The notes under the pieces are model-generated. The model saw nothing but the letters and a program-made list of their open reading frames with translations, made no database searches and was not told where the DNA came from. A program made the translations under genes and the position numbers. A stretch of 64,000 nucleotides of DNA from Vicinamibacterales bacterium (lineage in GTDB: Bacteria; Acidobacteriota; Vicinamibacteria; Vicinamibacterales; JAMQPK01): contig CAWGSZ010000009.1 in NCBI GenBank assembly GCA_963825295.1, forward strand, positions 1,618,642 through 1,682,641, written 5' to 3'. Position 1 is the stretch's first letter. Each line of letters opens with the position of its first letter. Positions 4,495-27,998 of this stretch are shown here, piece after piece.

Positions 4495-6432
4495 TTAGCG
4501 CGCCGACACGAGACGCAGCTCGGAGGAGGCGTTCGCTTGTTGTGTGTTCTGTGATGTGTGCGACGCTTCGTCGCGCCGGGCCGTCCAGATGGCCTGCGCT
4601 AGGTGCGGCGCGATCACCTGTACCAGGCGGCTCTGGTTTTCAGAAAATATCGCCGTCGAGTACAACGTCAGCGTCCCGACAAGCGACTCGCGGGCGATCA
4701 GCGGCACGCTCAGCGCGTAGGCGAGCCCTCCCGCCAGACGCGCGCGCTCGCCGAGATCCAGCCGCGCCTCGGAGTTCACGATGACCTGGCGCTGCGCCGC
4801 GACCCAGCCGCTGACACCCTCGCCGAGGCGGAGCGTCGTACCGCCAATCTTGTCTGCGGCCGGACCTGCCCCGTGACGCAACGCGAGAGAGCCCCTTTCA
4901 TCGACGGTGTACCACGCAATCGTCGCGCCGGGGACGACATCCTTCACGAGCTTCGACGCGAGCGCCAGCACGTCGTTCGTCGAGGCATCGCCCGCGGTCA
5001 GGCGGGCGAGGCTTACGAATGCCAGCACGTCGTCGGACACCCCGGCGGGTGTCACGACAGGCGGTGGCGGCACGGCGACAGGCGCAGCCACGGACCGGGT
5101 AATCTGCCTGAGCGCGTCGTGCGGCTGGAACGCCGCCATCTGCGCGACGAGCTCGCGATGCACGCTGATGAAGGTGTCCACCACGAGCGGTTCGTACATG
5201 GTTCCGCGCCGCGCGCGCAGGATGTCGAACGCCTGCTCGTCGGACAATGCGGACCGGTACGGGCGGTCGGAAGTGAGCGCGTCGAAGCAGTCCACGACCG
5301 AAAGAATCCTCGCGCCGATCGGAATATCCGCGCCCACGACGCCCCTCGGGTACCCGGTGCCGTCCCAGTTCTCGTGATGGCAGCGCACGATGGGCACCAC
5401 CGGATACGGAAATTCCACGAGCGACAGAATGTCGGCGCCGACGTCGACGTGGCGCTTCATCTCTTCGAACTCGGCTTCGTTCAGCTTGCCGGGCTTGTTG
5501 AGAATGTGTTCCGGCACGGCGAGCTTGCCCGTGTCGTGCAGCAGTGCCGCGGCCTCGATCGCTTTCAGCGTCGCCTCGTCATCGAGGCCCAGCGCGCGCG
5601 CCAGGCCGAGCGCGTACGCCTGCACGCGCCTGACATGGCTGTGCGTCACGTCATCTTTGGCGTCGATGGCCATCGCGAGCGTCTCGACCGTCGACAAATA
5701 CAAGCGATCGAGGTGCGCCAGGTGGCGGCTCGCATCGTCGAGCCGGCCGATCGACGAGCGTAGCGTCAGGTGCAACACCAGCAGCAGCGGCACCAGCACG
5801 AGGATCGTGGCCGTCAGACCCGCCTCGTACATCACCAGGACGAGACAGAACGAGACCGACGCGGCCGCAAAGTATGTGGCCATGAGCCAGAGGAAGTGCT
5901 CGCGCCACACCGCAAGCGTCGGCCGGTCCGTGTCGAGTGCGACGGCGACCGCAATCACCAGCGTGTTCGTGACGAAATACACCGCGGTGAACGCGAGCAG
6001 CGGCACGACCAGATCGACGGCCGGCGACTGTACCTGCGAGAGCGGTTGCACACCGGCAGTCCAGAAGAACACGTGGCTGCCGGCCCAGACCGCAAACGCG
6101 CACGCCGACGCATTGAAGGTCACACGCTCGCGCGCGTGACCGCGCTTCCATGACGTGATGAGCGTGCCGAGCGCCACCGCGAGCGTCGCAGGGGCCGGAC
6201 CGAAAAGCAGCGCAGTAGTGATGAAAAAGGTGTCGGAGACCGTGACTCGGACCGAGATAGACCCGAGCTTCAGCGAGAACGAGCCGGCCACTGCCGTGAG
6301 GGCCGCGAAGATCAGCCACTCGTATCGATGTGGGGTCGTCTGTAACGAGACAACCGACTGGACGATGACCGCAACGCCGACGGCGCCAACCGCGAAGATC
6401 CACGCACGCAGCCCGTTACGCGGCCCGGTCAT
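4495..6432 (-). CDS. Polytopic membrane HD-GYP domain phosphodiesterase with C-terminal GAF-like domain
   Basis: 645 aa. The N-terminal roughly 220 aa hold multiple TM helices. HD-GYP signature: HSHVRRV...LLHDTGKLAVPEHILNKPGKL...CHHENWDGTGYPRG. The C-terminus has a GAF-like segment (LGEGVSGWVAAQRQVIV). Confidence 0.8.
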   Translation of the reverse strand: MTGPRNGLRAWIFAVGAVGVAVIVQSVVSLQTTPHRYEWLIFAALTAVAGSFSLKLGSISVRVTVSDTFFITTALLFGPAPATLAVALGTLITSWKRGHARERVTFNASACAFAVWAGSHVFFWTAGVQPLSQVQSPAVDLVVPLLAFTAVYFVTNTLVIAVAVALDTDRPTLAVWREHFLWLMATYFAAASVSFCLVLVMYEAGLTATILVLVPLLLVLHLTLRSSIGRLDDASRHLAHLDRLYLSTVETLAMAIDAKDDVTHSHVRRVQAYALGLARALGLDDEATLKAIEAAALLHDTGKLAVPEHILNKPGKLNEAEFEEMKRHVDVGADILSLVEFPYPVVPIVRCHHENWDGTGYPRGVVGADIPIGARILSVVDCFDALTSDRPYRSALSDEQAFDILRARRGTMYEPLVVDTFISVHRELVAQMAAFQPHDALRQITRSVAAPVAVPPPPVVTPAGVSDDVLAFVSLARLTAGDASTNDVLALASKLVKDVVPGATIAWYTVDERGSLALRHGAGPAADKIGGTTLRLGEGVSGWVAAQRQVIVNSEARLDLGERARLAGGLAYALSVPLIARESLVGTLTLYSTAIFSENQSRLVQVIAPHLAQAIWTARRDEASHTSQNTQQANASSELRLVSAR

Positions 6433-6435
6433 GTC

Positions 6436-8184
6436 CTATTGATCGACGACGATCGAATCGCCCCAGATGACCTCTTCGCCTTCCATCTTCCTGGAGTCGC
6501 CCCAGATCACTTCCTGGCCCTCGGGATTGGTGAGGTGGTCGCCCCAGATGACTTCCTGATCGGCGGTCCATCTCGACACATCACCCCAGATCACTTCGTT
6601 CGGATGCACCTGCGAGAGCGGGTTTGAGAGACCGAGGAGGTTCAGCTCGTCCGACCGCAGGTAGCCCGCGCTCAGCCAGGCCAGCGGCGCTTCGAGCAGC
6701 GACAGCACGCGGAGCCCGTACCCGCGGTAGAGCCGTGTGGTCATCGTGCCGTTGTCCCAGAACATCACGCCGCTGGCGGGCGTCAGCACGCCGCCGACGA
6801 GGGTCGACACGAGATTGGTGAGCCCGCTCGACGCCATTTTGCGGCTCGACCAGAAGTTCACGCTGCCCGCTCCGCCGCCCATCAGACCGCCGTCGGCCAT
6901 GTAGGTGGCGCCGCTCTGCAGCGCCATCTTCAACTGGGCCGACGTAATCTTGGGATGCGCCTGCATCAGGAGCGCGGCGCCGCCGGTGACGACGGCGGCC
7001 GACATGCTGGTGCCGCTCAGGTGCATGTAGCCGTTGGTCGAGTTGCCGGCGATGTGGAACTGCGGATAGGTGCGCGGCAGGTACGACCCGCGTGCCTCGA
7101 GCGAAACAATCTTGTTGCCAGGCGCCACGACGTCGGGCTTCACGGCGTTCTCGAACTTCGTCGGCCCGCGCGAGCTGTAGGTCGCCATGATGTCGTCGGA
7201 ACGGTCCGGCGTGCCCTTCGTGTTGATCGCGCCGACGGTGATCGCATACGGCGAATTGCCAGGCGACGAGACGCCTCCGAGGATCGGCGAACCGTCATCG
7301 GCTTTGCCGGCGTTGCCCGCCGACGCGATGACGATGATGCCGGCCATGCTCGCTTTCATCACGGCCTGGCAGAGCGGATCGGTCGTGGACGGCTCGGTGA
7401 CCGGATGCCCGAGTGAAAGGTTGATCGCGCGAATCTTGTACTTGTCGCGATTTTCGATGACCCACTCGATGCCCGCAATGACGTCGCTGGTATACCCGGT
7501 ACCGTCAGGGCCCAACACGCGGACGTTGACGAGCTTCACCCCTGGTGCAACACCGCCGCGAAATCCTGTCGTAATGCCGTTCGAGGCCGACCCGGCGCCC
7601 GCGATGATGCCTGCGATGTGCGTGCCGTGGCCGTGCGCGTCGTCTGTGGAAGGATCGCCGGTGACCTTGCTGACGCTGGCGATCACTTTCTGGGAAAGAG
7701 CGGGATGATCGGCAATGCCGGTATCGACGACGGCAACCGTGACACCCGAGCCGTTCATGCCTGCAATCCCGCCGATGCCAAGCAGGCCACCAGGCTGCCC
7801 TGCCCTCACCTGATCGGCCGCGGTCGACGTGTTCGAGACATCCATGAACGGCGCGACCAGTGCGTCGCCCGACAGGACGTCGTTGGCCGAATCGGCGGCC
7901 AGATCGGACACCTGCCTGCTGTTGGCCAGCACGACCGCCGCGCCATCGAGCCATCGCGCGATCGCGAGACCGTGACGCGAGGCCATCGCCTCGATTTCCG
8001 TTTTGGATCCGCGTACGATGACGCGCGTGCGCGCAATCGAGAGGCGCCCTTCGAACGACAAGAGATCGCTCGAAAGACTGGCGCGGTGAGGTTGCCCGCC
8101 GACGCCGAAGGTGGATGCGGCGATGAGGGCGACGACCGCGAAGCACTTCAAAAAGTGTGAGCTGGGGAGCCGCACAGTGTTCAT
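6436..8184 (-). CDS. Secreted subtilisin-like (S8) serine peptidase with C-terminal EVIWGD repeats
   Basis: Catalytic-triad motifs VAVVDTGI, HGHGTHIAG and GTSMSAAVVTG. The ATG at 8184 gives a signal peptide (MNTVRLPSSHFLKCFAVVALIAAS). The track ORF extends to GTG 8256. The stop lies 3 nt upstream of the HD-GYP start. Confidence 0.85.
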   Translation of the reverse strand: MNTVRLPSSHFLKCFAVVALIAASTFGVGGQPHRASLSSDLLSFEGRLSIARTRVIVRGSKTEIEAMASRHGLAIARWLDGAAVVLANSRQVSDLAADSANDVLSGDALVAPFMDVSNTSTAADQVRAGQPGGLLGIGGIAGMNGSGVTVAVVDTGIADHPALSQKVIASVSKVTGDPSTDDAHGHGTHIAGIIAGAGSASNGITTGFRGGVAPGVKLVNVRVLGPDGTGYTSDVIAGIEWVIENRDKYKIRAINLSLGHPVTEPSTTDPLCQAVMKASMAGIIVIASAGNAGKADDGSPILGGVSSPGNSPYAITVGAINTKGTPDRSDDIMATYSSRGPTKFENAVKPDVVAPGNKIVSLEARGSYLPRTYPQFHIAGNSTNGYMHLSGTSMSAAVVTGGAALLMQAHPKITSAQLKMALQSGATYMADGGLMGGGAGSVNFWSSRKMASSGLTNLVSTLVGGVLTPASGVMFWDNGTMTTRLYRGYGLRVLSLLEAPLAWLSAGYLRSDELNLLGLSNPLSQVHPNEVIWGDVSRWTADQEVIWGDHLTNPEGQEVIWGDSRKMEGEEVIWGDSIVVDQ

Positions 8185-16138: not shown

Positions 16139-16930
16139 TTATGGCCGCACTGCGGCCACCCATGTCAGGCTTCCCTCCACCTGTTCGACCGAAATCGGGC
16201 GGAAACCCGCGGCGTCGAGTTCCGCGGTCAGCGCCTGGCGCGTGAAGTGATGACGATAGCGCAGGGTGCGGCCCGGCCGGTGACGCCAGAACACATCGCC
16301 GGGCTCCGGCGACCAGTCGGCGCGTGCCGCGCGCGCGCTCGTGCGAAGCAACCACGAGCCGAGCGTCGACTGACGTGTGAACCCGTGATAGCTCACCAGT
16401 ACTCGCCCTCCGGGCGCGAGATGATCCGCGACGCTCGCGAGCGCCGCGGCACGGCGTCGCGCGCCGCGAACGAGTGAATAGCAGCCGTTGGAAAAAATCA
16501 CGGCGTCGTAGCGTCGGTCGAGCGCGGCGGACTCGATCGCCCCGGTATGCAGCGCGGCCGCAGCACCGTGTCGCGCGAGATGCGCGCGCGCGATCGCGAT
16601 CGCCTGCGGCGAGTGGTCCAGACCCTCGACGTCGTATCCCAGACGGCCCAGCGCCAGCAGATCGCGGCCGGCGCCGCAGCCCACGAGCAGCACGCGATCG
16701 CCGGCGCGAAGATGGCCCCCGAAGAACTCACGCTCGTCCGGCGACAGCCCGGCATCCACGTCTTCATCTGAGATGCTGAAGTCGCTCCACTCGTCGCGCG
16801 CGGCCGCATCGAGATCGTCGGCACGCAGGAGACCGGCGGCGAGATACAGAAAAGCGTTTCCGAGTGGTCCGGGAAGGGCGGACGAGGCCCAGAGCGAGCG
16901 GTGCAGCGAGGCTCGACTTACGCCGAGCAC
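16139..16930 (-). CDS. Class I SAM-dependent methyltransferase
   Basis: VLLVGCGAGRDLLALGRLGYDVEGLD (motif I) sits inside track ORF 16139..17425. The start is placed at GTG 16930, overlapping the reductase stop; this start is uncertain. Confidence 0.6.
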   Translation of the reverse strand: MLGVSRASLHRSLWASSALPGPLGNAFLYLAAGLLRADDLDAAARDEWSDFSISDEDVDAGLSPDEREFFGGHLRAGDRVLLVGCGAGRDLLALGRLGYDVEGLDHSPQAIAIARAHLARHGAAAALHTGAIESAALDRRYDAVIFSNGCYSLVRGARRRAAALASVADHLAPGGRVLVSYHGFTRQSTLGSWLLRTSARAARADWSPEPGDVFWRHRPGRTLRYRHHFTRQALTAELDAAGFRPISVEQVEGSLTWVAAVRP

Positions 16931-18756
16931 TCGCCTTCTTGAATTTCGGGATTGAACTGCGCGGTCTCCGCGAGGTCGACGTAGTCGTCGGCAACCGCCG
17001 ATGACGAGGTCATCAGCTCGAGATCGGACAGGACTTCTTTGACGCGAGCGACATCGACGCGCATGAAAAACGCGGTCGCGGTCTCGCCGTCGTGCTTGTC
17101 GGAGACATAGAGATCGAGCAACCGCTCGAGCGCGGCTGTCAGCCGGCGCGCGGGAACTTTCGCGGCGAGACGGCCGAAGCGGACGGCATCGCCGTCGGGC
17201 CCGCCGCCCACCATGACGAAGTACTGTGGAATCGCCCGGCCGGCCACTTTGCGGACACTGCCCTGGAATCCGAGGCCGGCGATGTGATGGCGTCCGCACC
17301 CGTTCGGGCACCCGCTGATCTTGATCTGCAGATCGGGCGCCTTGGCGATGAGCTCCGGGTGCTCGCGCAGATGATCGCCGAGGAACCTGCCGAGCCCGCG
17401 CGACTGCGTGACCGCGAGCTTGCACGACTCGGCGCCGGGGCAGCTCGTCACGTCGGCAATCGTGCCCGCGTCCGCCAATCCCAGTCCTGCCGCCGCAAGC
17501 TGCCGGTACAGCTCGGGCACGGCATCAGTCGGCACCCAGCGGAAGACGAGGTTCTGCTCCGCGGTGATACGCACCATGCCATCGGCGAACGCGATCGCGA
17601 GATCGCCGAGGATGCGCATCTGCTGGCTCGTGAAGTCGCCGAGCGTAATCGTGGCGTTCACGACGAAGTAGCCGCTCTGCTTTTGCTTGCGCACGTTGGT
17701 GCTGAGCCAGTGCGAGTAGTCGCCGTTCATCGTCGGCAGCATGGGCCGCACCTGCGGGACGATGCCGGGACCGGTTACTTGCGAGCTCATCGCGCGCGAC
17801 ACTGTTTCGAGAATCGGCGGCGACTCGATGCGCCGCCACGCCGGCGCCTGCTCGGTGGGCGGACACTCGGGATCGAACGGCAGACTGGCGCCGCCCGCCG
17901 ACCTGAACTCAGCCAGCTTGGTGTTGTACTCGGCGAGGAACCGATCCCACCCGATCGATTTGATGAGGAACTTGAGGCGGTTCGCCTGCTTGTGCTTGTA
18001 GTCGCCGAACTGGTGAAAGACGCGAATCACCGCCTCGGCCACGTTGAAGATCTCGGAGGCCGGCAGGAACTCGTGCACGGGCGCCGCCGACTTCACCATG
18101 ATCGACGTGCCGCCGCCCACGACCACGCGGAAACCGCGCCTACCGTCCTCGATCGCGGCGCGATAGCCCAGGTCGTGCATGCCGAGGAGCGCGTGATCCA
18201 CGTCGGTGCACCCCTCGAACGCGATCTTGAACTTGCGAGGCAGCGACGAGCTGAGCGGATGGCGCAGGAGATATCGCGTCATCGCTTCCGAATATGGCGT
18301 GACGTCGAAGAGCTCCGTGGGCGAGACACCGGCCTCGGGGCAGCACGTGATGTTGCGCACGGAATTGCCGCAGGCCTCGCGCGTCGTCAGGCCGGCCTCG
18401 GCCAAAAGGCGCATGGCAGGCTCGGCGTCGTGCAGCTTGACGAAATGAAACTGGATGTTCTGACGCGTCGTGATGTGCCCGAAGCCGCGAGAAAAGCGCT
18501 CGCCGACCTCGGCCAGCGCCTCGAGTTGCGGCTGCGTCAAGACTCCCTGTGGAATCTTGATGCGCAGCATCTGCACGTCTCCGGCCTGACGCTGGCCGTA
18601 TGTGCCGCGGACGAGCCGGAACATGCGCCACTGGTCAGGGGTCAGCTCGCCGCTTTCGAACTTCTCGAGGGTGGCGACGAACTCGTCGATATCGGCTTCG
18701 CTCGCAAATGAGAGCCGGGTTCTTCCAAGCGTCTTGGGATCGTCAACTGCAGCCAT
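16918..18756 (-). CDS. Sulfite/nitrite reductase haemoprotein (sirohaem-[4Fe-4S], ferredoxin-type)
   Basis: 612 aa. Cysteine clusters TSCPGAESCKLA and ISGCPNGCGRHH are typical of NiR/SiR 4Fe-4S/sirohaem sites, and the domain repeat is duplicated. Confidence 0.85.
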   Translation of the reverse strand: MAAVDDPKTLGRTRLSFASEADIDEFVATLEKFESGELTPDQWRMFRLVRGTYGQRQAGDVQMLRIKIPQGVLTQPQLEALAEVGERFSRGFGHITTRQNIQFHFVKLHDAEPAMRLLAEAGLTTREACGNSVRNITCCPEAGVSPTELFDVTPYSEAMTRYLLRHPLSSSLPRKFKIAFEGCTDVDHALLGMHDLGYRAAIEDGRRGFRVVVGGGTSIMVKSAAPVHEFLPASEIFNVAEAVIRVFHQFGDYKHKQANRLKFLIKSIGWDRFLAEYNTKLAEFRSAGGASLPFDPECPPTEQAPAWRRIESPPILETVSRAMSSQVTGPGIVPQVRPMLPTMNGDYSHWLSTNVRKQKQSGYFVVNATITLGDFTSQQMRILGDLAIAFADGMVRITAEQNLVFRWVPTDAVPELYRQLAAAGLGLADAGTIADVTSCPGAESCKLAVTQSRGLGRFLGDHLREHPELIAKAPDLQIKISGCPNGCGRHHIAGLGFQGSVRKVAGRAIPQYFVMVGGGPDGDAVRFGRLAAKVPARRLTAALERLLDLYVSDKHDGETATAFFMRVDVARVKEVLSDLELMTSSSAVADDYVDLAETAQFNPEIQEGECSA

Positions 18757-18780: not shown

Positions 18781-19977
18781 TCACTTTTTCCCAGCGAGGA
18801 TCTTCCACGCGCCGTGCACGTTGCGGTGCACGTAAAGCGCCGGCAAGAGCCACGGGCCCAATGGCTTATCGCGGAGTCCATAGGCGCCGAGCATGTAGCC
18901 GGGGCTGGGCAGTAGCACCTCGCGCAGCAACCGGGCGCGGTCCCCCAGCCGTGGCAACGCGCGCAGGCTGGCAAGGGTCTCGTGGTGCCACCTCCGTTCA
19001 GACGCCAGATACCGCGCGGAGGGTTCCGGCGCCGCCTCGCGGTTCAGCCCGGCGATGAGATCGGCGTCAACCGGCGTGTTGAACAGCGCCCTCGCCTGCT
19101 CCAATGCGCGGCGGCATATCGCCGTGACCTTCCTGGCTCGAGCCAGCTCCTGGAACTCGTTCCGCTCGGCCGCCGACAACCCGGACGCGAGCAGGTGGAT
19201 GTCGAGGATCCACAGCAGCCGCTCGTCGTTGCGGTGATGCATCGCAGGATGCACGCACGACAGAAGGAGCGCATCCACGCGGCACGGGGCGAAGGCCGAC
19301 TCGCCGAGCGCCGGTACGGCGATCGCGCGTCGCAGCAGCGTGTCATACGGCAGCAGGTCGGCAAAGACGGGCTGCGTGCTGATGTTCCAGTGTACGTCGA
19401 AGGCGTGGACCACGCCGAATCGATCGCGCTGCTGAACCTCGAACTGCGAAAGCAGCTCGTGGCATTGCACGGTTTCCACATACGAAAGCGATCGCATCAC
19501 CTGGCGAGCCGCCTCGACGTCTGCGGCGGAGACCATGAGGTCGGTATCGGCGCGAGAGCGCGATGCCGGCGAGTCGTACATGGTGTAGGCGAGCGGCGTC
19601 CCCTTGAGAAGAATCGGACGGATCCCGGCATCCGCCAGCGCGGCGACCACGCGACGGATTTCTGCTTTGCGCAGAAGCTCTTCTGCGGCACGCGTGCGGG
19701 CCACGTCCGAGAGCTCTTCCCACACCTGCCGGGGCCAGCCGGCAGTCGAGAAACGGATCCCGGATCCGTTTTCATCCGGTGCCCCAGAAAACGGATCCGC
19801 AATCCGTCTCTCGGCAGAATCAAGGCTCGACAGTCGCTCGAAACAGAGACCCTCGACCTCGTGCTCGCGGCACAGGTCGAGGAACTGTTGCGCGTCGAGC
19901 CCCAGATCGCTCCACCGCGTGACGTCGCCGCGCAGGAACGCTGCCAACAGCTGCAGCGGCTCACGTGAGGACGGCAT
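18781..19977 (-). CDS. Nucleotidyltransferase-family protein (PF14907-like), lasso-cluster tailoring candidate
   Basis: 398 aa. The central region LLKGTPLAYTMYDSPASRSRADTDLMV...FDVHWNIS resembles the uncharacterised nucleotidyltransferase family found in kinase-type lasso clusters. Its start overlaps the B2 stop by 17 nt. Confidence 0.6.
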   Translation of the reverse strand: MPSSREPLQLLAAFLRGDVTRWSDLGLDAQQFLDLCREHEVEGLCFERLSSLDSAERRIADPFSGAPDENGSGIRFSTAGWPRQVWEELSDVARTRAAEELLRKAEIRRVVAALADAGIRPILLKGTPLAYTMYDSPASRSRADTDLMVSAADVEAARQVMRSLSYVETVQCHELLSQFEVQQRDRFGVVHAFDVHWNISTQPVFADLLPYDTLLRRAIAVPALGESAFAPCRVDALLLSCVHPAMHHRNDERLLWILDIHLLASGLSAAERNEFQELARARKVTAICRRALEQARALFNTPVDADLIAGLNREAAPEPSARYLASERRWHHETLASLRALPRLGDRARLLREVLLPSPGYMLGAYGLRDKPLGPWLLPALYVHRNVHGAWKILAGKK

Positions 19978-20371
19978 AGTCCTCGAGTTCCGGCAGGTGG
20001 CCGATCACGACTTCTCCCCTGCATTCAACCCACGCGTGCGCCTCCAGCACGGTGGATGCGCCACTGCGCGCGCCGATACGCAACGTCGCGTCGTATCCGT
20101 GGCGCCGCAACATCGTGTACGCCGTCAGCGCTTCCGCAAGACACGTCGTTCCCGGCAGTCGTCGCGTGACGGCGGCGGCAGCCCATGTGATTCTCGACAG
20201 GATGTCCCGCTGGTTGGGGCTCGATTGTGCGCGGCGATCGAGTCGGCGAGTGAGCTCGGGGAACGACAACACGTGGAGACCGATCCGCACCCACACGATG
20301 AGCACAAATGCCTCTGCCAGACGCGCCCTGTCGGCAGGGGTCAAGCGCGCAAAGATGCGAAGCGTGTTCAT
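19961..20371 (-). CDS. Lasso peptide leader peptidase B2 (transglutaminase-core cysteine protease)
   Basis: MNTLRIFARLTPADRARL...TTCLAEALTAYTMLRRHGYDATLRIGAR...EAHAWVECRGEVV carries the Cys and His of the transglutaminase-like core. The ATG at 20371 overlaps the upstream stop (ATGA). The longer track ORF reaching 20530 overlaps the GT-C gene. Confidence 0.75.
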   Translation of the reverse strand: MNTLRIFARLTPADRARLAEAFVLIVWVRIGLHVLSFPELTRRLDRRAQSSPNQRDILSRITWAAAAVTRRLPGTTCLAEALTAYTMLRRHGYDATLRIGARSGASTVLEAHAWVECRGEVVIGHLPELEDYAVLT

Positions 20372-21945
20372 TCGGTTCTCGTGCCTGTTGGATCGTAGCC
20401 GACCGGACATTCTGGCGGCAGCCGATAGAGATCGGTCGATGGAAATCCGACATCCCACGACGCGCGCAAGGGACCGAGGCGATTCAAATGAAGTGGCGGC
20501 GCCGCATAGCTGGCGACGCGCACGGCGCACGCGTACTCGCCAGGCACATCATCGCCCGTCTGCCAGATGAAGAATCTCGACGAGCCGGGCGAAGCGCCGC
20601 GGCGATGGCCCGGTGGCTGAAACGCGTCGAGATGCGTGGCCCACCGCGCCCAGTCGGCATGGCTCGACGCGACAAACGATCGATAGGAGGAGCCGGCCCC
20701 CTCAACTGAAAAAAAGTACAACGCGTCAGGTCCAACGACCGAGGACCCCTCGGGGACCTGCCGGCGGATGAATTCGGTGAGGGGAACCGGGTCGCGCGCC
20801 TCCCAGGTGGCCGCAATGCGAAGGTCACGAACCCCGGCCACCGCAAGGTTGACCGCCGCCAACGCAGCGACGATGGCAGCCAGCCCAGCCGTGGGAAGAC
20901 CGAACGCGCGCCGCGGCAACGCGAGAACCACGGCCAGGACCGGAACGGCGAAATACATGCCCAGCGAGAACGTGATGTTCATCCCGCACACAACGATCAC
21001 GCCGGTGGCAATTGTGGCCGCGAGCGCGAAGAGCGCCGCCACGGCCCGAGTGTCGTCACCGCGAGAACTCCGGACGAGATGCCAGAACCCGAGCACCCCA
21101 CCGGCAAGCGCCGCGGCGGGCGTCACCACCGACGACCAGTTGAATGCGAACACACGCGTCGCGGCCTCGAGCATCGCAACATCCGTGTCCTCGCGCGTCA
21201 GGATGAAGAACATGCTGCGGGCCCACGGAACAGGACCACCGTGCTCGAGGAGAGTCCACAGCACGAACCCGGTTGTGAAGACGCCCCCAGCCATCACGAC
21301 CTGCCTGAACGCGCCAGGCCGACGCGTCATGAATGCGGTCGCGCACGCGCACACCAAGAAAGACGCGACAAATGGATAGCTGCGCGGTGTCGTCAGCGCC
21401 GCGAGAAGCAGGAACCCTCCAGCGATCGATCCCGCCATCGCCCCTCGCGTCGGAACCAGCAACCCACGGGCGAATGCCGCAAGCGCCATCAACTGAAACC
21501 CGACGGCAAGCGTTTCCATGTCGCCGCCGGTCGCCGCCGCCCCGATTTCGGGCGTGAGCCATATCAGCACGATCGCCAGCAACCATCGCGTACGGTCGCC
21601 GCTCAAGCACGACGCCAGCCATGCGGCGCCTGCTCCGACCAGCAGCACACCCAGCAAACCGGGAAGCTTCGAGCTCTCGATCGAGAACCCGAACACCGCG
21701 AACGACCACGACATGAGCGTGAAGAAAACAGGACCGTAGAAAGGCAGGTGATCGACCGCGGCCGGCGAGAACCAGGTCGTCGATGGCACGCCGCTGCCAT
21801 CGATCTGCAGCGAACGCGCGATGGACGCATAGAGCTGTGCGTCCGGCCAGGGCGTCGAAGCCCGCCCACGTGTGACGTAGAAGCTCGCGAGAATCAGGCA
21901 CGCCGTCACGGCCAGCGCCGCCGGACCGATGCGCGCCGCGGTCAT
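20368..21945 (-). CDS. GT-C-fold (ArnT/PMT-like) polytopic membrane protein embedded in the lasso operon
   Basis: 525 aa. About 10-12 TM helices with an early loop motif PWPDAQLYASIARSL, plus a roughly 150-aa C-terminal soluble domain. It is paralogous in architecture to 25827..27066, 46623..48374 and 60223..61564. ATGA overlaps on both sides. Confidence 0.55.
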   Translation of the reverse strand: MTAARIGPAALAVTACLILASFYVTRGRASTPWPDAQLYASIARSLQIDGSGVPSTTWFSPAAVDHLPFYGPVFFTLMSWSFAVFGFSIESSKLPGLLGVLLVGAGAAWLASCLSGDRTRWLLAIVLIWLTPEIGAAATGGDMETLAVGFQLMALAAFARGLLVPTRGAMAGSIAGGFLLLAALTTPRSYPFVASFLVCACATAFMTRRPGAFRQVVMAGGVFTTGFVLWTLLEHGGPVPWARSMFFILTREDTDVAMLEAATRVFAFNWSSVVTPAAALAGGVLGFWHLVRSSRGDDTRAVAALFALAATIATGVIVVCGMNITFSLGMYFAVPVLAVVLALPRRAFGLPTAGLAAIVAALAAVNLAVAGVRDLRIAATWEARDPVPLTEFIRRQVPEGSSVVGPDALYFFSVEGAGSSYRSFVASSHADWARWATHLDAFQPPGHRRGASPGSSRFFIWQTGDDVPGEYACAVRVASYAAPPLHLNRLGPLRASWDVGFPSTDLYRLPPECPVGYDPTGTRTE

Positions 21946-22238
21946 GACGGCTCGCGAATCTCCACCAGCCCGCGTTCCGCGAGATGGCTCAGCAGCGTGC
22001 AGACGTCTTCTCGACAGCGTACCGCGTCGACGTCATAGAGCTCGACGATCGCGCTCACGATCTCGTCAATGGTGACCGTGCGCGCCAGCAGCTTCCAGAT
22101 CTCGGCGCCGGCGCCATCGAGGCCGTAATAGGTGCCGTCGTTCAGGTTCAACATCACGACTTCGGCGCCCAGCTCGCTCGCCAGCACGTCGTGAGCCATC
22201 GCAACGGTCGAGGATGAAGGTATGTCGGAGCGAGCCAT
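21942..22238 (-). CDS. PqqD-like RiPP recognition element (lasso B1)
   Basis: MARSDIPSSSTVAMAHDVLASELGAEVVMLNLNDGTYYGLDGAGAEIWKLL...VCTLLSHLAERGLVEI follows the PqqD fold pattern. The start is chosen at 22238 so that it does not overlap the divergent cyclase. Confidence 0.7.
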   Translation of the reverse strand: MARSDIPSSSTVAMAHDVLASELGAEVVMLNLNDGTYYGLDGAGAEIWKLLARTVTIDEIVSAIVELYDVDAVRCREDVCTLLSHLAERGLVEIREPS

Positions 22239-22275
22239 CGATGATCGCAAAGTATTATAAAGTCCGAATCGAATC

Positions 22276-24204
22276 ATGAACGGCATCACAGGCGTGTGGA
22301 ATCTCGACGCGCGCCCAATCGAGCGGGGCGTGCTCGCCACGATGAGCGCCCGTCTCGCCCACCGCGGGCGTGACGGCGAACGCCTGTATCTGTCCGGCCC
22401 CGCGGGTGTCGCCTGTCAGCACTCCTGGGTCACGCCCGAAGAACAGGGAGAACACCTCCCGCTCGTCGGCGCCTCCGGCGCGGTGCTGGTGATGGACGGC
22501 CGCATCGACAATCGACACGATCTCGTCACCCGATTGGGGCTCGACGCGACGGCCAGCGACGCCCGCTGCGTGCTGGCGGCGTACGAAGCCTGGGGCGAGG
22601 GGTTCGCCGCGCGCCTCAACGGCGATTTCGCGCTCGCGATTCTCGACGCCGGCGCCGGACGCCTCATCCTGGCGCGGGATGCGCTGGGCGTTCGAGCACT
22701 CTATTACTTTCACGGTGCGGGGCTGTTCGCGTTCGGATCGGAGATCAAAGCGCTTCTGGCTCATCCCGATATCCCCGCCGAGCCCAACGACGAGGGCGTC
22801 GCCGACTTCATGCTCGTCGGTGCCCGGCCGCTCGATCAGCAGGACCTCACCTGCTTTCGCGGCATCTCCGCCGTCATCCCCGCGCACGTCGTCGTCGCAA
22901 CGCGTCGCGGAACATCCAGTCATCGCTATTGGAACTTCGACCCCCAGGCTCGATTGCGTCTGAAGACGTCCGAAGAATATGTCGAGGCGTTCCATGAGCG
23001 GTTCGCCACGGCCGTGAAACGACGCACGCGTTCGGCGTTCCCGGTTGCGTTCTCGGTCAGCGGCGGCCTCGATTCGTCGTCCATCATCTGCCAGTCGGAG
23101 ACGCTGCGGCGCAACGGCGAGCTGCCGGCCCCGTCAATCGCCGGCCTTTCCTACGTATCCGATCGCGTGAATACCGACGAGCAGCAGTTTCTTCGTGAGA
23201 TCGAAGCTAAATTCGATCTGCAATTCGACCGCTTTACTATCGAAACGCGGACCGGCCTCGTCGAGGGCGCGCGGGAACAGGTATCGGCTATCGAAGCGCC
23301 ATTTGTGGATTACATGTGGGGCGTCACGCGCGAGGTGCACGTACGGGCCGCGGCCACGGGGGCACGCTCGCTGCTGTCGGGTCACTGGGGCGATCAGATG
23401 CTCTTCTCGAGCGCGTATCTGATCGACTTGTTCCGCCGAGGGGCCTGGCGGTCGATCTGGCGTCACACGCGCGAGTACGGCCGGTATTTCGGCGACGAGG
23501 AGACCGCGAGACGCCGGCGCCTGCTGCTCGTCGACGCCGCGCGGTACCACGTGCCGCGCTCGCTTGCAACGCCGCTCAAGTGGCTTCGAATGCGGCTGTT
23601 CGCGCCACCCCGGCCGAAGGCGTGGTTTGCACCTTCATTCCTGGCCACGGCCCTGCAGCATCGCTACAAGCTGGCGACACTGGACGGTCCGTTCCACTCG
23701 GCCCACGCCCGCGCCGTCTACATCGAGGCGCGCTCGAAGTACCAGGTACAGTGCATGGAGTGGAACAGCAAGGTCGGCGCACGGTACGGGCTCGAGGCGG
23801 CGTTTCCATTCCTCGATCGCGATCTCATCGCGTTTCTGATGGCGATTCCCGGAGAGATGCACGCGCCTGATGGCGTGCCGCGCGCCCTCTTACGTGAAGC
23901 GATGCGCGGCATCCTGCCCGATTCGATCCGCGCGCGCACCTGGAAATCGGATTTCAGCAGCTTCGTGACCCAGGGGCTCAGCGACGATGCTGACGAAATC
24001 CTGCGAACGATGACGGGCGACTGTCTCGGCGTGCGCTTCGGCTTCCTCGACGGCAACAAGCTCGCGCCGGAGCTCGCTCGCCTGGCCGAGTCACTGACCG
24101 CCGATGACTGCACGGATAGCTGGGATATGGCCGACACGTATGGCCTCGAAATGTGGCTTCGAGTATTCTTGGGCGGACACGTCCTGAACGAGGAACACGC
24201 ATGA
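22276..24204 (+). CDS. Lasso peptide cyclase (asparagine synthetase B homologue, C protein)
   Basis: 642 aa. AsnB-like Ntn and synthetase domains (SVSGGLDSSSI PP-loop). Residue 2 is Asn (MNGITG), not the catalytic Cys of a true AsnB. The stop overlaps the precursor start. Confidence 0.8.
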   Translation: MNGITGVWNLDARPIERGVLATMSARLAHRGRDGERLYLSGPAGVACQHSWVTPEEQGEHLPLVGASGAVLVMDGRIDNRHDLVTRLGLDATASDARCVLAAYEAWGEGFAARLNGDFALAILDAGAGRLILARDALGVRALYYFHGAGLFAFGSEIKALLAHPDIPAEPNDEGVADFMLVGARPLDQQDLTCFRGISAVIPAHVVVATRRGTSSHRYWNFDPQARLRLKTSEEYVEAFHERFATAVKRRTRSAFPVAFSVSGGLDSSSIICQSETLRRNGELPAPSIAGLSYVSDRVNTDEQQFLREIEAKFDLQFDRFTIETRTGLVEGAREQVSAIEAPFVDYMWGVTREVHVRAAATGARSLLSGHWGDQMLFSSAYLIDLFRRGAWRSIWRHTREYGRYFGDEETARRRRLLLVDAARYHVPRSLATPLKWLRMRLFAPPRPKAWFAPSFLATALQHRYKLATLDGPFHSAHARAVYIEARSKYQVQCMEWNSKVGARYGLEAAFPFLDRDLIAFLMAIPGEMHAPDGVPRALLREAMRGILPDSIRARTWKSDFSSFVTQGLSDDADEILRTMTGDCLGVRFGFLDGNKLAPELARLAESLTADDCTDSWDMADTYGLEMWLRVFLGGHVLNEEHA

Positions 24205-24362
24205 AACGCAAGCCAGAGCAACCGGCGACGCCCAGACGGGTCTATCGGACCCCGTCGCTGAAGGTTCACGGCGATTTCCGCAAGGTGACCGCCAGCAAGG
24301 GTGGCACGAACAACGACGGCACCGGAAAACCGCGGACGAAGAACAACAACCCGAACCAGTAG
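24201..24362 (+). CDS. Lasso peptide precursor (53 aa)
   Basis: MKRKPEQPATPRRVYRTPSLKVHGDFRKVTASKGGTNNDGTGKPRTKNNNPNQ. It carries a YxxPxL leader motif, Thr at leader position -2 and Asp at predicted core position 8. ATGA overlap with the cyclase; the kinase starts 4 nt after its stop. Confidence 0.7.
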   Translation: MKRKPEQPATPRRVYRTPSLKVHGDFRKVTASKGGTNNDGTGKPRTKNNNPNQ

Positions 24363-24366
24363 TCGA

Positions 24367-25326
24367 ATGCCCGTGCGATACCGTCTGTACGGGCTCACCA
24401 TCGAGTGCGACGTTCCGCTTTCCTGCCCCCGGGATTCCCAAGACAGCACCTCTGACGTTCGACTGACACGCGCCGCCGCCAAGCGGTTCGACCAGGTGCG
24501 TACGATGGCCAGCATTCCATCACGTGCGGCGCAATGGTTCGAATGCGCGCGGCTCGAAGATGGCTCCACATACCTGCGATGGACGCGGCTCTTCGAGTTC
24601 CTCGTGGCGCCGGACGGACGAACGATCGAGTGCCGCCCGCTCGAACACGCCACGCGTCACGCCTTGACGACGTATCTGATGGGACAGGTGCTGTCGTTTT
24701 CTCTGCTCTCGTTCGGGTACGAACCGCTGCACGCAACGGCCGTTGTGATCGACGGCTCGGCGGTGGCGTTTCTCGGAGACTGCGGCGACGGAAAGTCGAC
24801 GCTCGGAGCGGCACTCGTCGCGCGCGGATTCCCGCTCCTCACCGACGATGTGCTGACGCTGAAGTCCGACGGCAACCGGTTCCTGGCTTATGCCGGACCG
24901 GCGCGGCTCAAGCTGTTTCCGTCGGTCGCGCGCTCGCTGCTGGGACGATCGGGAACGCACCGGCTGAATCCAGGGACGCGCAAGCTCGTGCTGCCGCTCT
25001 CGAGCCGTCGCGCCTGGTCTGATGCCGTCCCGCTGGAGGCGCTGTACGTCCTGTGCGGGCCGGCACGCAGCCGACGCGCCTCGCGCGTCACGCTCACCCC
25101 GCTGACGGGTCAGCGTGCGTTTCTCGAAGTGATTCGCTCGACGTTCAACCTGATCCAGGTCGACAAGGCACGGCTCGAGAATCAGTTCGGGATGGCAGTG
25201 GAACTCGTGAAGGCGGTGCCAGTGACGCGAATTACCTACCCAAGGAGACTGTCGCGTCTGGAAGAGGTGTGCGAGGCGATCCTGGGACGTCAAAGAGGCT
25301 CAACGTCAGATTGTCGTTCGGCATGA
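24367..25326 (+). CDS. HPr-kinase-related (HprK-like) lasso peptide kinase
   Basis: 319 aa from ATG 24367 (MPVRYRLYGLTIECDVPL). P-loop FLGDCGDGKSTLGAALVARGFPLLTDDV resembles HprK/P C-terminal-domain relatives found in lasso clusters. Confidence 0.65.
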   Translation: MPVRYRLYGLTIECDVPLSCPRDSQDSTSDVRLTRAAAKRFDQVRTMASIPSRAAQWFECARLEDGSTYLRWTRLFEFLVAPDGRTIECRPLEHATRHALTTYLMGQVLSFSLLSFGYEPLHATAVVIDGSAVAFLGDCGDGKSTLGAALVARGFPLLTDDVLTLKSDGNRFLAYAGPARLKLFPSVARSLLGRSGTHRLNPGTRKLVLPLSSRRAWSDAVPLEALYVLCGPARSRRASRVTLTPLTGQRAFLEVIRSTFNLIQVDKARLENQFGMAVELVKAVPVTRITYPRRLSRLEEVCEAILGRQRGSTSDCRSA

Positions 25327-25837
25327 TCTGGCCCAGCAACGTGGCACCGGTCGCGCGGCCGCGCGTCGGCTCGTGCCGGACAAGCCAGTTGCCAAGAATC
25401 AACGCCGCAATCGCGAACGTGACATCGGAGCTGTACTGCTTGCAGTTCGCGCCCCAGTAGATTGCCGACGGAGACAGCGAGAAAAGCGCGAGGGCCAGAA
25501 GCGCCGCCCCGCGTGAAAGGTAGGCACGCGCCGCCATGTAGAAGAGCGGCAGCGACACGAGACCGCACACGAACGCCGGAAACCGCAGCACGCGCTCGGA
25601 ATCGCCGAACATGAGCACGAACGCTTTGGTGACGAATACAAATCCAACCGGTGCCGCCTGGTGGAACTCGTAGGGGCCGAGCAGATCCCAGCCCGACTTG
25701 CGCAGAATGTTCAGCGCCAGCGCCGCCTCGGGCCACCAGAACGATCAGTCGAACAGATACATCTGAAGGCGCAGCCCCGCGCCCACCGCGACGAGCGCGG
25801 TGACCGCCATGATGACGCGGCGGTTGTCAGACACCAT
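25232..25837 (-). pseudogene. GT-C (ArnT/PMT-like) gene remnant: in-frame TGA and 3' truncation
   Basis: MVSDNRRVIMAVTALVAVGAGLRLQMYLFD-TGA(25745..25747)-SFWWPEAALALNILRKSGWDLLGP...LRFPAFVCGLVSLPLFYMAARAYL... stays in one frame. Family-like sequence fades near 25370, where it runs into the 3' end of the convergent kinase gene. Confidence 0.55.
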
Positions 25838-27066
25838 CGCGCCTCTCCGGCACACGCGCGAGCGCGACAGCCGCATAGAAGAAGAACACGAACTCCATCG
25901 GTGCGCGGTATCGCGTGGCGGGCACATACACGGCGTAGACCACGACGAAGACGCAGGCGATCGCCCACAGCGCAAAGTCGTGCGCGAGCACGTGGCGGCG
26001 CATGTAAATGCCAGCCACAGCCGCGAGCATCACGAACGACGACGCCAGGGTGTGGCTGATGACTTCAAGTCGCGGACGTGTCACTGGCGCCTCGACAATG
26101 ACCTTGTCGGGCGGTGCGAGCGTCACGCGCGTCTCCGGACCAGAGACGTACAGCGGGATCAGCCGGGGCGAGAGGAAGATACCCCGCGTTCGCGAGCTTT
26201 TCCTTGATCGTCCCAACCGGCGAGGCTTTCATGTGCTCGATCGCGGCGCTCGTCAGGTACGCATCGATACGCGGAGTGTAGTCCGCGCTGCCCGGCACGA
26301 TGTCGGGCCGGGCCGTCGTTGCCAGCTCATAGGCCACCGGCTCGAGCAGGTCGAGATCGTGGTCGGGCAGCAGCGCCGCCGCGTATGGCGAGTTTCCGAT
26401 GAAGAGGTTGATCCCGTTCCGGGTCGGCCACCAGGATCCGTTCGCCCGGTGATTCCGCATCCACCATGGCAGCACGAGGATCATCGCCACACCGGCGACC
26501 ACCGCGGCGTCGCGTGCCTGGCCGCGCCGCACCAGGACAGCCCCGACGAGCACAATGAGCGGCAACACCATGGCCCGGCTGAGCACGCTGAGCCCGAGCC
26601 ATGCGCCGGCGATCGCGGCAGAGGCGACGCCCGCGATCGACGCGGCCGCGCCGGCAAACCCGACGAGCAGCAGGGTTGTGAGTGACGAATCGCCGACCGT
26701 GGCCGCATGCCGGACCAGCAGCGGATACCCCGCGAACAGCAGTCCGGCGAACACGCCGGCGCGCGCCGATCCCGTCCGGCCGAGGACGAGCCGGTACAGC
26801 AGCACCGCGCCGAGTGAGGCGACCGCAATCTGCATCAGCTGGACGGCCAGCACGGAGTCGCGCGCGATGAGCCGGGCGCCGGCAAGGAACAACGGATAGA
26901 GCGGTTCGAAGTCGGTCACGGGAAGGCCGTCGATCGTGAACGTTCCGGTTCGAACCAGACTGCCCGACAACGCCCAGTACTGGCTTTCGATTGGAGGATG
27001 AATCAGCAACAGGTAGGCGAGACGCGGAAGAGCTGCGGCACAGAACAGGATGGCCGCCGGTTTCAT
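25827..27066 (-). pseudogene. GT-C (ArnT/PMT-like) membrane glycosyltransferase, frame broken once
   Basis: The N-terminal roughly 295 aa (MKPAAILFCAAALPRLAYLLL..., ATGA-coupled to thrB) and the C-terminal TM part (IFLSPRLIPLYV...YRAPMEFVFFFYAAVALA, ORF 25827..26216) are in different frames. Removing one C from the CCCC run at 26182..26185 joins them (…KLANAG-IFLSPRL…). Confidence 0.6.
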
Positions 27067-27998
27067 ATCACGCGCGCACCCTGACTGCTCACCTTTCCTG
27101 CGAACAGATCGCTTTCGAGGCCGGCCGCCGATCGGAATGCGGTCTGCATGGCCGCGCCGATCCGTTCGGCGGCGATCACGCTCTCCGCAAACGCAAACAC
27201 CGAGGGTCCGGACCCGGCGATCGAACACCCCAGCCCTCCGGCCTCGAGCGCGGCCCTCTTGACCGCATCAAATCCCGGAATCAGCCGCGAGCGGAGCGGC
27301 TCGACCAGACGGTCTTCGACGCTGCGTCCCACCAGCCCCAGATCACCACGGCCAAGACCCGCGACAAGCGCCGCCACGTTGCCCAGATTCGGCACGATGT
27401 CGTCGAGCGCGTACGTACGCCCCTTCACCAGACGCCGCGCCTCGGCCGTGGATACTTCGCAATGGGGGTGCACCACGCTGATGTGCAGCGTGTCGGGGAA
27501 CGGCAGCCGAATGACCTCGAATGGTTGATAGCTGCGGACGAGCACGATGCCCCCCATGACGCTCGGCGCCACGTTGTCGGCATGGGGCGTCCCCGATGCG
27601 GCGCGCTCCCCTTCCATCGCACTCGCGACAACGTCGGTCTCGGCGAGCGGCCTGCCCAGCAACTCGTTGACGGCGACGGCGCCGGCCGCGCTGCTCGCGC
27701 CAGAGCTGCCAAGCCCGCTCGCCAGCGGCATCTGCTTGTGCAACCAGAGCCGCACGCCTCGATTCGCGCCGGTGCGTCGCAGGACATCGGCCGCGGCACG
27801 TCCCACCACGTTCTTGCCGGCATCGCGGCTCAAGAGTCCACGATCGCCCGTGACCTCCACGATTTCGATGCCGGGGCGATCGGTCAGCTCGGCCTCGAGC
27901 TCGTCGCCGGGCCGGCTGAGCGCCAGTCCGAGCACATCGAATCCTGGCCCGAGATTCGCTACGGTTGCGGGTGCGAAGACGCGAATTCGTCGGTTCAT
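27063..27998 (-). CDS. thrB: Homoserine kinase
   Basis: 311 aa. The N-terminus VFAPATVANLGPGFDVLGLAL and the GHMP motif PLASGLGSSGASSAAG are present. Confidence 0.9.
   Translation of the reverse strand: MNRRIRVFAPATVANLGPGFDVLGLALSRPGDELEAELTDRPGIEIVEVTGDRGLLSRDAGKNVVGRAAADVLRRTGANRGVRLWLHKQMPLASGLGSSGASSAAGAVAVNELLGRPLAETDVVASAMEGERAASGTPHADNVAPSVMGGIVLVRSYQPFEVIRLPFPDTLHISVVHPHCEVSTAEARRLVKGRTYALDDIVPNLGNVAALVAGLGRGDLGLVGRSVEDRLVEPLRSRLIPGFDAVKRAALEAGGLGCSIAGSGPSVFAFAESVIAAERIGAAMQTAFRSAAGLESDLFAGKVSSQGARVI

Follow-up and report, generated by a model that had tools for sequence, protein, structure and literature searches.

Which hydroxyl does a lasso peptide kinase phosphorylate when its precursor lacks a C-terminal Ser? 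This question is raised by a 64,000-nt stretch of the genome of a Vicinamibacterales bacterium (contig CAWGSZ010000009.1; hereafter, the window), in which a precursor gene encoding 53 amino acids (aa) (gene A; 24201..24362, + strand) is followed directly by a gene for a 319-aa HprK/PEPCK-like P-loop kinase (gene K; 24367..25326, +). To our knowledge, only two acceptor positions of lasso kinases are known, the C-terminal Ser and Ser3 of the core. The kinase encoded here must use a hydroxyl other than that of a C-terminal Ser, as an initial annotation of this DNA had supposed, since the precursor ends in Gln and a C-terminal Ser was found in 0/29 kinase-linked precursors. From the conservation pattern, we consider it moderately probable that the peptide is a lasso precursor of a multi-phylum family whose kinase phosphorylates Thr15, located in a K-P-x-T-[K/R] motif of the tail.

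The 24201-24362 (+) frame translates exactly as the initial annotation had given it (MKRKPEQPATPRRVYRTPSLKVHGDFRKVTASKGGTNNDGTGKPRTKNNNPNQ, followed by the stop) and comprises a 31-aa leader (24201-24293), a putative 22-aa core (24294-24359; SKGGTNNDGTGKPRTKNNNPNQ) and the stop codon (24360-24362). The YRTPSL motif of the leader, a YxxPxL motif for binding by the recognition protein B1, places Tyr, Pro and Leu at positions -17, -14 and -12 relative to Ser32, and Thr stands at -2 (precursor residues Y15, P18, L20 and T30); the core starts at S32, and D39 is core position 8. From this canonical register, we expect cleavage by the leader peptidase (B2) directly behind Ala(-1) and closure by the cyclase of a ring between the alpha-amine of Ser1 and the Asp8 side chain, so that the codons at 24294..24317 (+) would encode an 8-residue macrolactam ring. 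The NCBIfam leader model NF033521 (lasso_leader_L3) matched the precursor at 20.4 bits, above its cutoff of 19. Every feature by which a lasso precursor can be judged from sequence is present, i.e., the YxxPxL register, Thr(-2), a small residue at position 1, Asp/Glu at positions 7-9, and the B1, B2 and C genes. Core starts at Gly3 or Gly4 were rejected because they would leave a ring of 5 or 6 residues, and a start at Lys2 because it breaks the -17/-14/-12/-2 register. The core (N6 G4 K3 T3 P2 S1 D1 R1 Q1) contains no aromatic residue and no Ala, Val, Leu, Ile or Met, and the monoisotopic mass of its cyclised (dehydrated) form is 2280.0955 Da; the composition and the mass of ~2280 Da reported earlier were thus both accurate.

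In a 65% GC genome that is rich in spurious open reading frames (ORFs), a short frame of this kind could be open by chance and untranslated. We regard this as extremely improbable. A hidden Markov model (HMM) of the peptide family matched the precursor ORF at E=2.4e-24, with everything else in the 64 kb at an E value of at least 0.5, and the NCBIfam score lies above its cutoff. More than 200 homologues keep the reading frame, the length and the position, and the 13 close homologues in databases are 52-54 aa long, 72-88% identical and in the same position in syntenic contigs. The ORF appears to be under purifying selection, as pairwise dN/dS among six orthologues was 0.16-0.56 (all <0.6) and their differences were biased towards third codon positions (228, compared with 87 at first and 116 at second positions). 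A ribosome-binding site and translational coupling are also in place, as GAGGA lies 8 nt upstream of the precursor ATG, which overlaps the cyclase stop codon (ATGA), and the kinase ATG is 4 nt past the precursor stop (TAG). Among metatranscriptome assemblies, a 174-nt soil contig covers an 89%-identical precursor gene, and rhizosphere contigs match stretches of the cyclase gene and of the kinase gene but not the window's precursor; they offer weak support for transcription, DNA carry-over being possible. Based on these sequence features, the ORF at 24201-24362 appears to be the genuine precursor of a class II-type lasso peptide with a predicted threaded topology, belonging to a large, uncharacterised, multi-phylum family.

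The peptide is therefore not the isolated oddity that it had first seemed. Scanning one genome per species with a kinase profile built from 20 homologues yielded 37 loci, from Vicinamibacterales, other Acidobacteriota, Gemmatimonadota, Rokubacteria/Methylomirabilota, Nitrospirales, Oligoflexia and a 'delta-proteobacterial' metagenome-assembled genome (MAG). They span about six phylum-level groups, and the best Vicinamibacterales locus is 90% identical. A search for homologous precursors beside HprK-like genes had been suggested with the initial annotation, and it bore out the proposal, as the small ORF directly upstream of the kinase encodes the same type of peptide in nearly all 37 loci. The genes A, B1, B2, C, K and N (a nucleotidyltransferase-like gene, NTP_transf_5) are co-conserved across phyla according to tblastn searches, and N co-occurs with the kinase in 26/37 loci, many of the others being cut by contig ends. 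A literature search for a lasso peptide with a kinase from Acidobacteria or Gemmatimonadetes, or for a phosphothreonine lasso, returned no description of this family, and in the NCBI annotation one member is labelled 'lasso RiPP family leader peptide-containing protein' (RiPP, a peptide made on the ribosome and then modified post-translationally).

An alignment of 29 kinase-linked precursors showed Tyr(-17), Pro(-14), Gly(-8) and Thr(-2) to be invariant, with Leu(-12) and core Thr15 at least 90% conserved. A profile search further recovered 216 database proteins, and the family counts below refer to the 120 of these 216 matches that were listed (117 for ring-8 cores). Thr(-2) is present in 119/120 and the first acidic residue (D/E) falls on core position 8 in 113/120, so the predicted cleavage site and the Ser1-Asp8 ring of a 22-aa core, as initially proposed, are strongly supported. 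The core follows the consensus [A/S/T/G]-K-G-G-x-x-x-D-G-x-G-K-P-x-T-[K/R] with a short variable tail. Conservation within the ring-8 cores is highest for Lys2 (115/117), Gly4 (111/117) and Gly9 (109/117), followed by Thr15 (102/117), Lys/Arg16 (100/117), Pro13 (96/117) and Lys12 (90/117); a [TS][KR] pair past the ring acid occurs in 119/120, of which 114 have T[KR]. Position 1 is mostly Ala and position 10 mostly Gly or Ala, position 3 is G/A/K (Ser/Thr in 4%), 68% of the ring-8 cores have Ser/Thr at position 5, and positions 6 and 7 are mostly K/N/M/S/R/A and N/A/G/S, respectively. Core length ranges from 17 to 24 residues, with 11 cores of 17 aa that end two residues past Thr15. The last residue is Ala in 64 of the 120, Gly in 15, Thr in 12, Gln in 8, Lys in 8, Ser in 5, Val in 5 and another residue in 3. 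With a C-terminal Ser in only 5/120, its absence is a trait of the whole family and not a peculiarity of the window peptide. The Asn-richness that had been stressed for this peptide is real in the window but is not a family trait: its Asn-rich tail (NNNPNQ) is the variable part, limited to the window's Vicinamibacterales sub-lineage, in a family otherwise rich in Gly, Lys, Thr and Ala.

Some members depart from this layout. In L015 (Gemmatimonadota), two tandem family precursors (5492-5671 and 5816-5992) lie upstream of one kinase, with the cores AKRGRRFDGIGRPRTRVRILNP and AKAGRRNDGAGKPRTRLGGRRA. In L035, L041, P0220 and P0237, Thr(-2) is separated from the xKGG...D ring segment by two additional residues (e.g., LTR-AT-TKGGTAQD and LTM-GP-SKGGAKQD), so that either the ring would have 10 residues or the cleavage would depart from the Thr(-2) rule. 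One member (L019/P0218) is without a position-1 residue (LTL|KGGNKAD), in which case the ring would be seven-membered (Lys1-Asp7) or the cleavage site displaced. The precursor ORF of L010 (5823-6086; 87 aa) runs through into the kinase gene, probably due to an indel error in a long-read MAG and not to a real extension.

We then ask whether the kinase is likely to act on such a peptide. It matched PF07475 weakly and TIGR04352, and PF27840 is precomputed for many of its homologues. The P-loop (GxxGxGKS), the catalytic His and the Asp-Asp pair are present, and H122, G137, G140, G142, K143, S144, D160 and D161 are invariant in the 20-homologue alignment. These residues map one-to-one onto H148, G163, G166, G168, K169, S170, D186 and D187 of BsfK, which matter by mutagenesis, and they also agree with an alignment of BsfK and PadeK (PMC10368454). 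In BLASTP, the kinase is 25% identical to BsfK over 201 residues (E=1e-11), and its family profile detected HprK structures in the PDB (E=9e-7). The AlphaFold2 model was predicted with high confidence (pLDDT 90.2, pTM 0.88), and Foldseek aligned it to HprK/P C-domains (TMt up to 0.67) and to ATP-dependent phosphoenolpyruvate (PEP) carboxykinases (TMq 0.55-0.60). HprK/P and PEPCK are structurally related families. Given its intact catalytic residues and the fold of its model, this P-loop kinase, homologous to BsfK, looks active and of the kind that phosphorylates lasso precursors.

As for the acceptor, the residue of the linear precursor on which PadeK, ThcoK, SyanK and PsmK carry out (poly)phosphorylation is its conserved C-terminal Ser (PMC9266682). 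The initial annotation took this to hold for all characterised HprK-type lasso kinases, which is outdated: BsfK of Bradymonas sediminis, reported in 2023, phosphorylates core Ser3 of BsfA, whose precursor ends in Asp, in a reaction that is accelerated by B1 and for which the free BsfA core is not a substrate (PMC10368454). The window precursor conforms to neither pattern, as it ends in Gln and has Gly3 and Thr(-2) where the BsfK type has Ser/Thr at core position 3 and Ile(-2). A Ser/Thr 5-8 residues past the ring acid was found in 29/29 kinase-linked and 120/120 database members, with a mode of +7, which corresponds to Thr15. Ring hydroxyls, on the other hand, are not universal: Ser/Thr is missing from ring positions 1-7 in 8/29 kinase-adjacent precursors, such as that of L008 (ring AKGGNMGD; core AKGGNMGDGGGKPSTRSGGTNA), whose kinase is 60% identical to that of the window, and many relatives have Ala, Asn and Gly where the window peptide has Ser1, Thr5 and Thr10. 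Provided that the acceptor position is the same for orthologous kinases, Thr15 is the only universal candidate, and we infer that it is the acceptor. Of the four hydroxyls that had been listed as candidates, conservation thus favours Thr15 and disfavours Ser1, Thr5 and Thr10 as a family-wide site. The linear precursor would be phosphorylated before leader removal, as with known lasso kinases, at a position that is neither a C-terminal Ser nor a ring residue (codons of Thr15-Lys16, the family [T/S]-[K/R] motif, at 24336..24341, +), with a predicted product mass of 2360.06 Da. The PsmN-like NTP_transf_5 protein may then add a hexose or another group to the phosphate (e.g., 2522.11 Da).

Alternatively, by analogy with BsfK, the kinase could target a ring or loop hydroxyl in this particular peptide, at a fixed short distance from the leader bound by the RiPP recognition element (RRE); Thr5 would be the first choice, and Ser1 or Thr10 less likely. 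BsfK is strictly regioselective for core position 3, which lies in the ring (PMC10368454), Thr5 is found in all 13 close homologues, and position 5 is commonly Ser/Thr in the ring-8 cores, as given above. We nevertheless consider this option rather unlikely, because the 8/29 precursors with no Ser/Thr in positions 1-7 stand beside an orthologous kinase, a kinase family that would be expected to keep a single acceptor position, and because positions 1 and 10 are mostly occupied by Ala and by Gly or Ala.

Several points count against the explanation that we prefer. The conservation of Thr15, from which the phospho-site is deduced, could instead serve target binding or threading. The sole internal site that has been mapped experimentally, Ser3 of the BsfK substrate, is in the ring, and Thr5 is invariant in the closest relatives of the window peptide. 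A 45-residue catalytic block of the kinase is 22-25/45 identical to the C-terminal-Ser kinases and 21/45 to BsfK; being about equally similar to both groups (21-25/45), it does not assign regiospecificity, and placing the kinase in either clade by sequence was dropped. The nucleotidyltransferase is likened to PsmN and BsfN by annotation only ('uncharacterised nucleotidyltransferase'). Lastly, the metatranscriptome contigs are sparse and possibly contaminating DNA, and none is on the window's own precursor gene.

What would such a modification do for the peptide? No family member carries the usual bulky plugs and 11 cores end at residue 17, so the thread must cross the ring around K12-P13-x14-T15-[K/R]16. 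In the window peptide, the thread probably passes through the ring at Arg14-(p)Thr15-Lys16, where the modified Thr and/or Lys16 would form the lower lock. The ring of gelatinamin A encloses Gly14, with Arg13 and Val15 on either side (PMC11451635, PMC13178200, PMC12427821), and given that the 8-residue S/A1-D8 ring of lariocidin and gelatinamin A holds an Arg13/Gly14/Val15 thread, Arg14 and Lys16 are plausible plugs. The suggestion of the initial annotation that a bulky modification acts as a lock is reasonable, and pseudomycoidin offers a published precedent. Its phosphate receives one or two hexoses in a step that requires PsmN, an 'uncharacterised nucleotidyltransferase'; when PsmK and PsmN are missing, the peptide is unthreaded, and the bulky phospho-sugar was put forward as the lock (PMC6993621). 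A phosphate or glycosyl group on Thr15 would provide a further lock, which agrees with that proposal and with K and N being co-conserved.

The charged residues might also suffice by themselves, with an HprK-like protein that is non-catalytic or has another substrate and a cationic lasso held unmodified by Lys12, Arg14 and Lys16 alone, as in lariocidin or gelatinamin. Lariocidin (SKKSKPGDGKFGRGVKRG) and gelatinamin are indeed stable 8-ring lassos (PMC11451635, PMC13178200, PMC12427821), and known lasso kinases give low phosphorylation yields in heterologous hosts (PMC9266682). It is hard to reconcile this, however, with a kinase start codon 4 nt past the precursor stop in an adjacency that is kept across phyla, with the invariance of all kinase catalytic residues, or with the fact that every characterised lasso-cluster homologue is a precursor kinase (PMC9266682, PMC10368454), and we deem it decidedly unlikely that the peptide stays unmodified.

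A last possibility concerns the purpose of the phosphate: instead of locking the structure, it could be a transient mark on a cationic bioactive lasso that masks charge, protects the producer or signals export. The mature core would have a net charge of ~+3, the acceptor Thr directly precedes the invariant Lys/Arg, the cluster is without an ABC exporter or immunity gene, and self-resistance by acetylation is documented for superficially similar S/A1-K2...D8-G9 cationic lassos (PMC12070363, PMC13178200). This is drawn by pure analogy from the Lys acetylation of triculamin and lariocidin, though, the cluster has no phosphatase, and characterised lasso kinases give phosphorylated final products (PMC9266682); we therefore hold it to be very unlikely. 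Returning to the proposed Thr15 phosphorylation, its setting can be compared with three groups of known systems.

The pseudomycoidin cluster of Bacillus pseudomycoides (psmC-A-K-B1-B2-N-D) shares with the window both the gene set and the local orders C-A-K and B1-B2-N (PMC6993621). Pseudomycoidin, paeninodin, ThcoA and SyanA likewise combine an HprK-like kinase acting on the precursor with a co-encoded nucleotidyltransferase, and have hydrophilic cores with weak steric plugs for which modification has been proposed as the thread lock. Their precursors, however, end in the acceptor Ser, whereas the window peptide ends in Gln and the C terminus of its family is variable; clusters of the pseudomycoidin type include the ABC exporter D, which the window cluster lacks; their ring has 9 residues (Ala1-Asp9) instead of 8 (Ser1-Asp8); and their hosts are Bacillota and Sphingomonadales, as opposed to Acidobacteriota and others.

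BsfA and BsfK resemble the case predicted here in having an internal hydroxyl acceptor in a precursor without a C-terminal Ser (PMC10368454). The BsfA core (GTSGNEVDGSTPADRGNNPGD) is, like that of the window, hydrophilic and 21-22 aa long, with an X1-Asp8 ring, Gly9 and an ...NNP... tail, and the system has both K and N genes, with a kinase catalytic motif identical to that of the window. BsfK targets Ser3 of the ring, though, where the window peptide has Gly3. BsfA also has Ile(-2) and is acidic, compared with Thr(-2) and a basic family here, and the two kinases are only 25% identical.

The ribosome-targeting lassos lariocidin, triculamin and gelatinamin share the Ser/Ala1-Asp8 ring, Lys2, Asp8-Gly9 and Lys/Arg16 with the window family, and they too are highly cationic and hydrophilic, with cores conserved over several phyla and minimal core lengths of 17-18 aa. 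The near-invariant PGDG motif of triculamin and lariocidin (PMC12070363) is not found in the window peptide, which has T-N-N-D-G, and the cluster ORFs (18781-27998) gave no Pfam or NCBIfam match to a GNAT or clostripain-like gene. Conversely, the described triculamin-type clusters are without a kinase or NTP-transferase (PMC11451635, PMC13178200), and the window cluster has both. Given the absence of the PGDG motif and of the GNAT and clostripain genes, the window peptide does not belong to the triculamin/lariocidin family, and the likeness, which amounts to 4-5 positions in Gly/Lys-rich peptides, may be due to chance or convergence.

Pfam and NCBIfam scans of the window ORFs indicated that the precursor is embedded in a complete split-B lasso cluster, with the gene order C-A-K on the + strand and B1-(membrane protein)-B2-NTP_transf_5 on the - strand. 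The 642-aa, Asn-synthetase-like lasso cyclase C (22276..24204, +) matched PF00733, PF13537 and NF033535 (E=2e-106). B1 (21942..22238, -), a PqqD-type RRE of 98 aa, matched PF05402 (E=2e-19) and NF033536, and its homologue is also 98 aa long in syntenic loci. The transglutaminase-like leader peptidase B2 (19961..20371, -; 136 aa) matched PF13471 and NF033537 (E=5e-28), and the NTP_transf_5 protein N (18781..19977, -) matched PF14907 (E=8e-35). The genes on the - strand are tightly packed, with 4-nt overlaps at both ends of the membrane protein gene (with B1 and with B2) and a 17-nt overlap of the B2 and NTP_transf_5 ORFs as called. The divergent start codons of B1 and the cyclase are only 37 bp apart (22239-22275) across an AT-rich gap (…AAAGTATTATAAAGTCC…), so the promoters of both operons must lie there or inside coding sequence; the scan found no sigma-70-like promoter, and its terminator-like matches were uninformative. 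Neither an ABC exporter nor an immunity gene was detected among the cluster genes by ORF and Pfam scans, and the family HMM found no second precursor in any of the six frames of the window.

The 525-aa protein encoded between B1 and B2 (20368..21945, -) is polytopic, with multiple transmembrane segments in its hydropathy profile, and represents no known family. It had no match in Pfam (E up to 10) or NCBIfam (E up to 0.01), only a non-significant match among PDB sequences (E=1.3), and no similarity to the neighbouring PMT_2 genes. The tblastn searches detected it in L001, in L005-L007 and, as a partial match, in L012, but in none of the more distant loci. It might be a substitute for the missing ABC exporter, or a new tailoring enzyme.

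Convergent to the kinase, ORFs for PMT_2-like (GT-C type) membrane glycosyltransferases occupy 25232-27228 (-), the first of which overlaps the kinase 3' end by ~95 nt, and L001 has the same overlap. The window sequence breaks this region up into several ORFs that lie in different frames, possibly because of frameshifts, and tblastn showed the downstream PMT_2-like genes to be confined to the closest Vicinamibacterales. In other loci, a SAM-dependent methyltransferase-like ORF lies just downstream of the kinase (L008-L011, ~6900-7700, -; 14 loci in all). This was the only addition from an all-versus-all clustering of the ORFs of the loci, which was swamped by antisense ORFs owing to the high GC content. 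The cluster is flanked by housekeeping genes for a sulfite/nitrite reductase and the homoserine kinase thrB (16918-18756, - and 27063-27998, -), and an exopolysaccharide Wzz/GNVR-tyrosine kinase and a Wzy_C ligase are located farther out. As the flanks are syntenic in Vicinamibacterales, the cluster is a stable chromosomal island and not obviously a mobile element.

What appears to be new here is a cluster of the phosphorylated-lasso type for which a new acceptor position is predicted and whose core is conserved unusually widely. The family predicts a third acceptor position for lasso kinases, a tail Thr next to the threading point, and offers >200 natural sequence variants with which this can be tested. 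It also provides a test of whether a phosphate or phospho-sugar can be a steric lock without bulky residues, an idea raised for pseudomycoidin and unproven there. The key chemical claim is one that we infer, yet the case is well defined and readily testable, and it can easily be checked against the predicted masses of 2280.10, 2360.06 and 2522.11 Da. More speculatively, and unlikely to hold in all its parts, this may be a cationic, core-conserved family in which an enzymatic phospho-(glycosyl)Thr at the threading point, in place of bulky side chains, locks the thread, as a third locking strategy that uses an internal position of the tail, and whose deep conservation stems from one conserved cellular target, which like that of lariocidin might be RNA or the ribosome. 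Lasso peptides are usually confined to one phylum (PMC12070363), and a core conserved over several soil phyla points to a conserved function in abundant, mostly uncultured soil bacteria.

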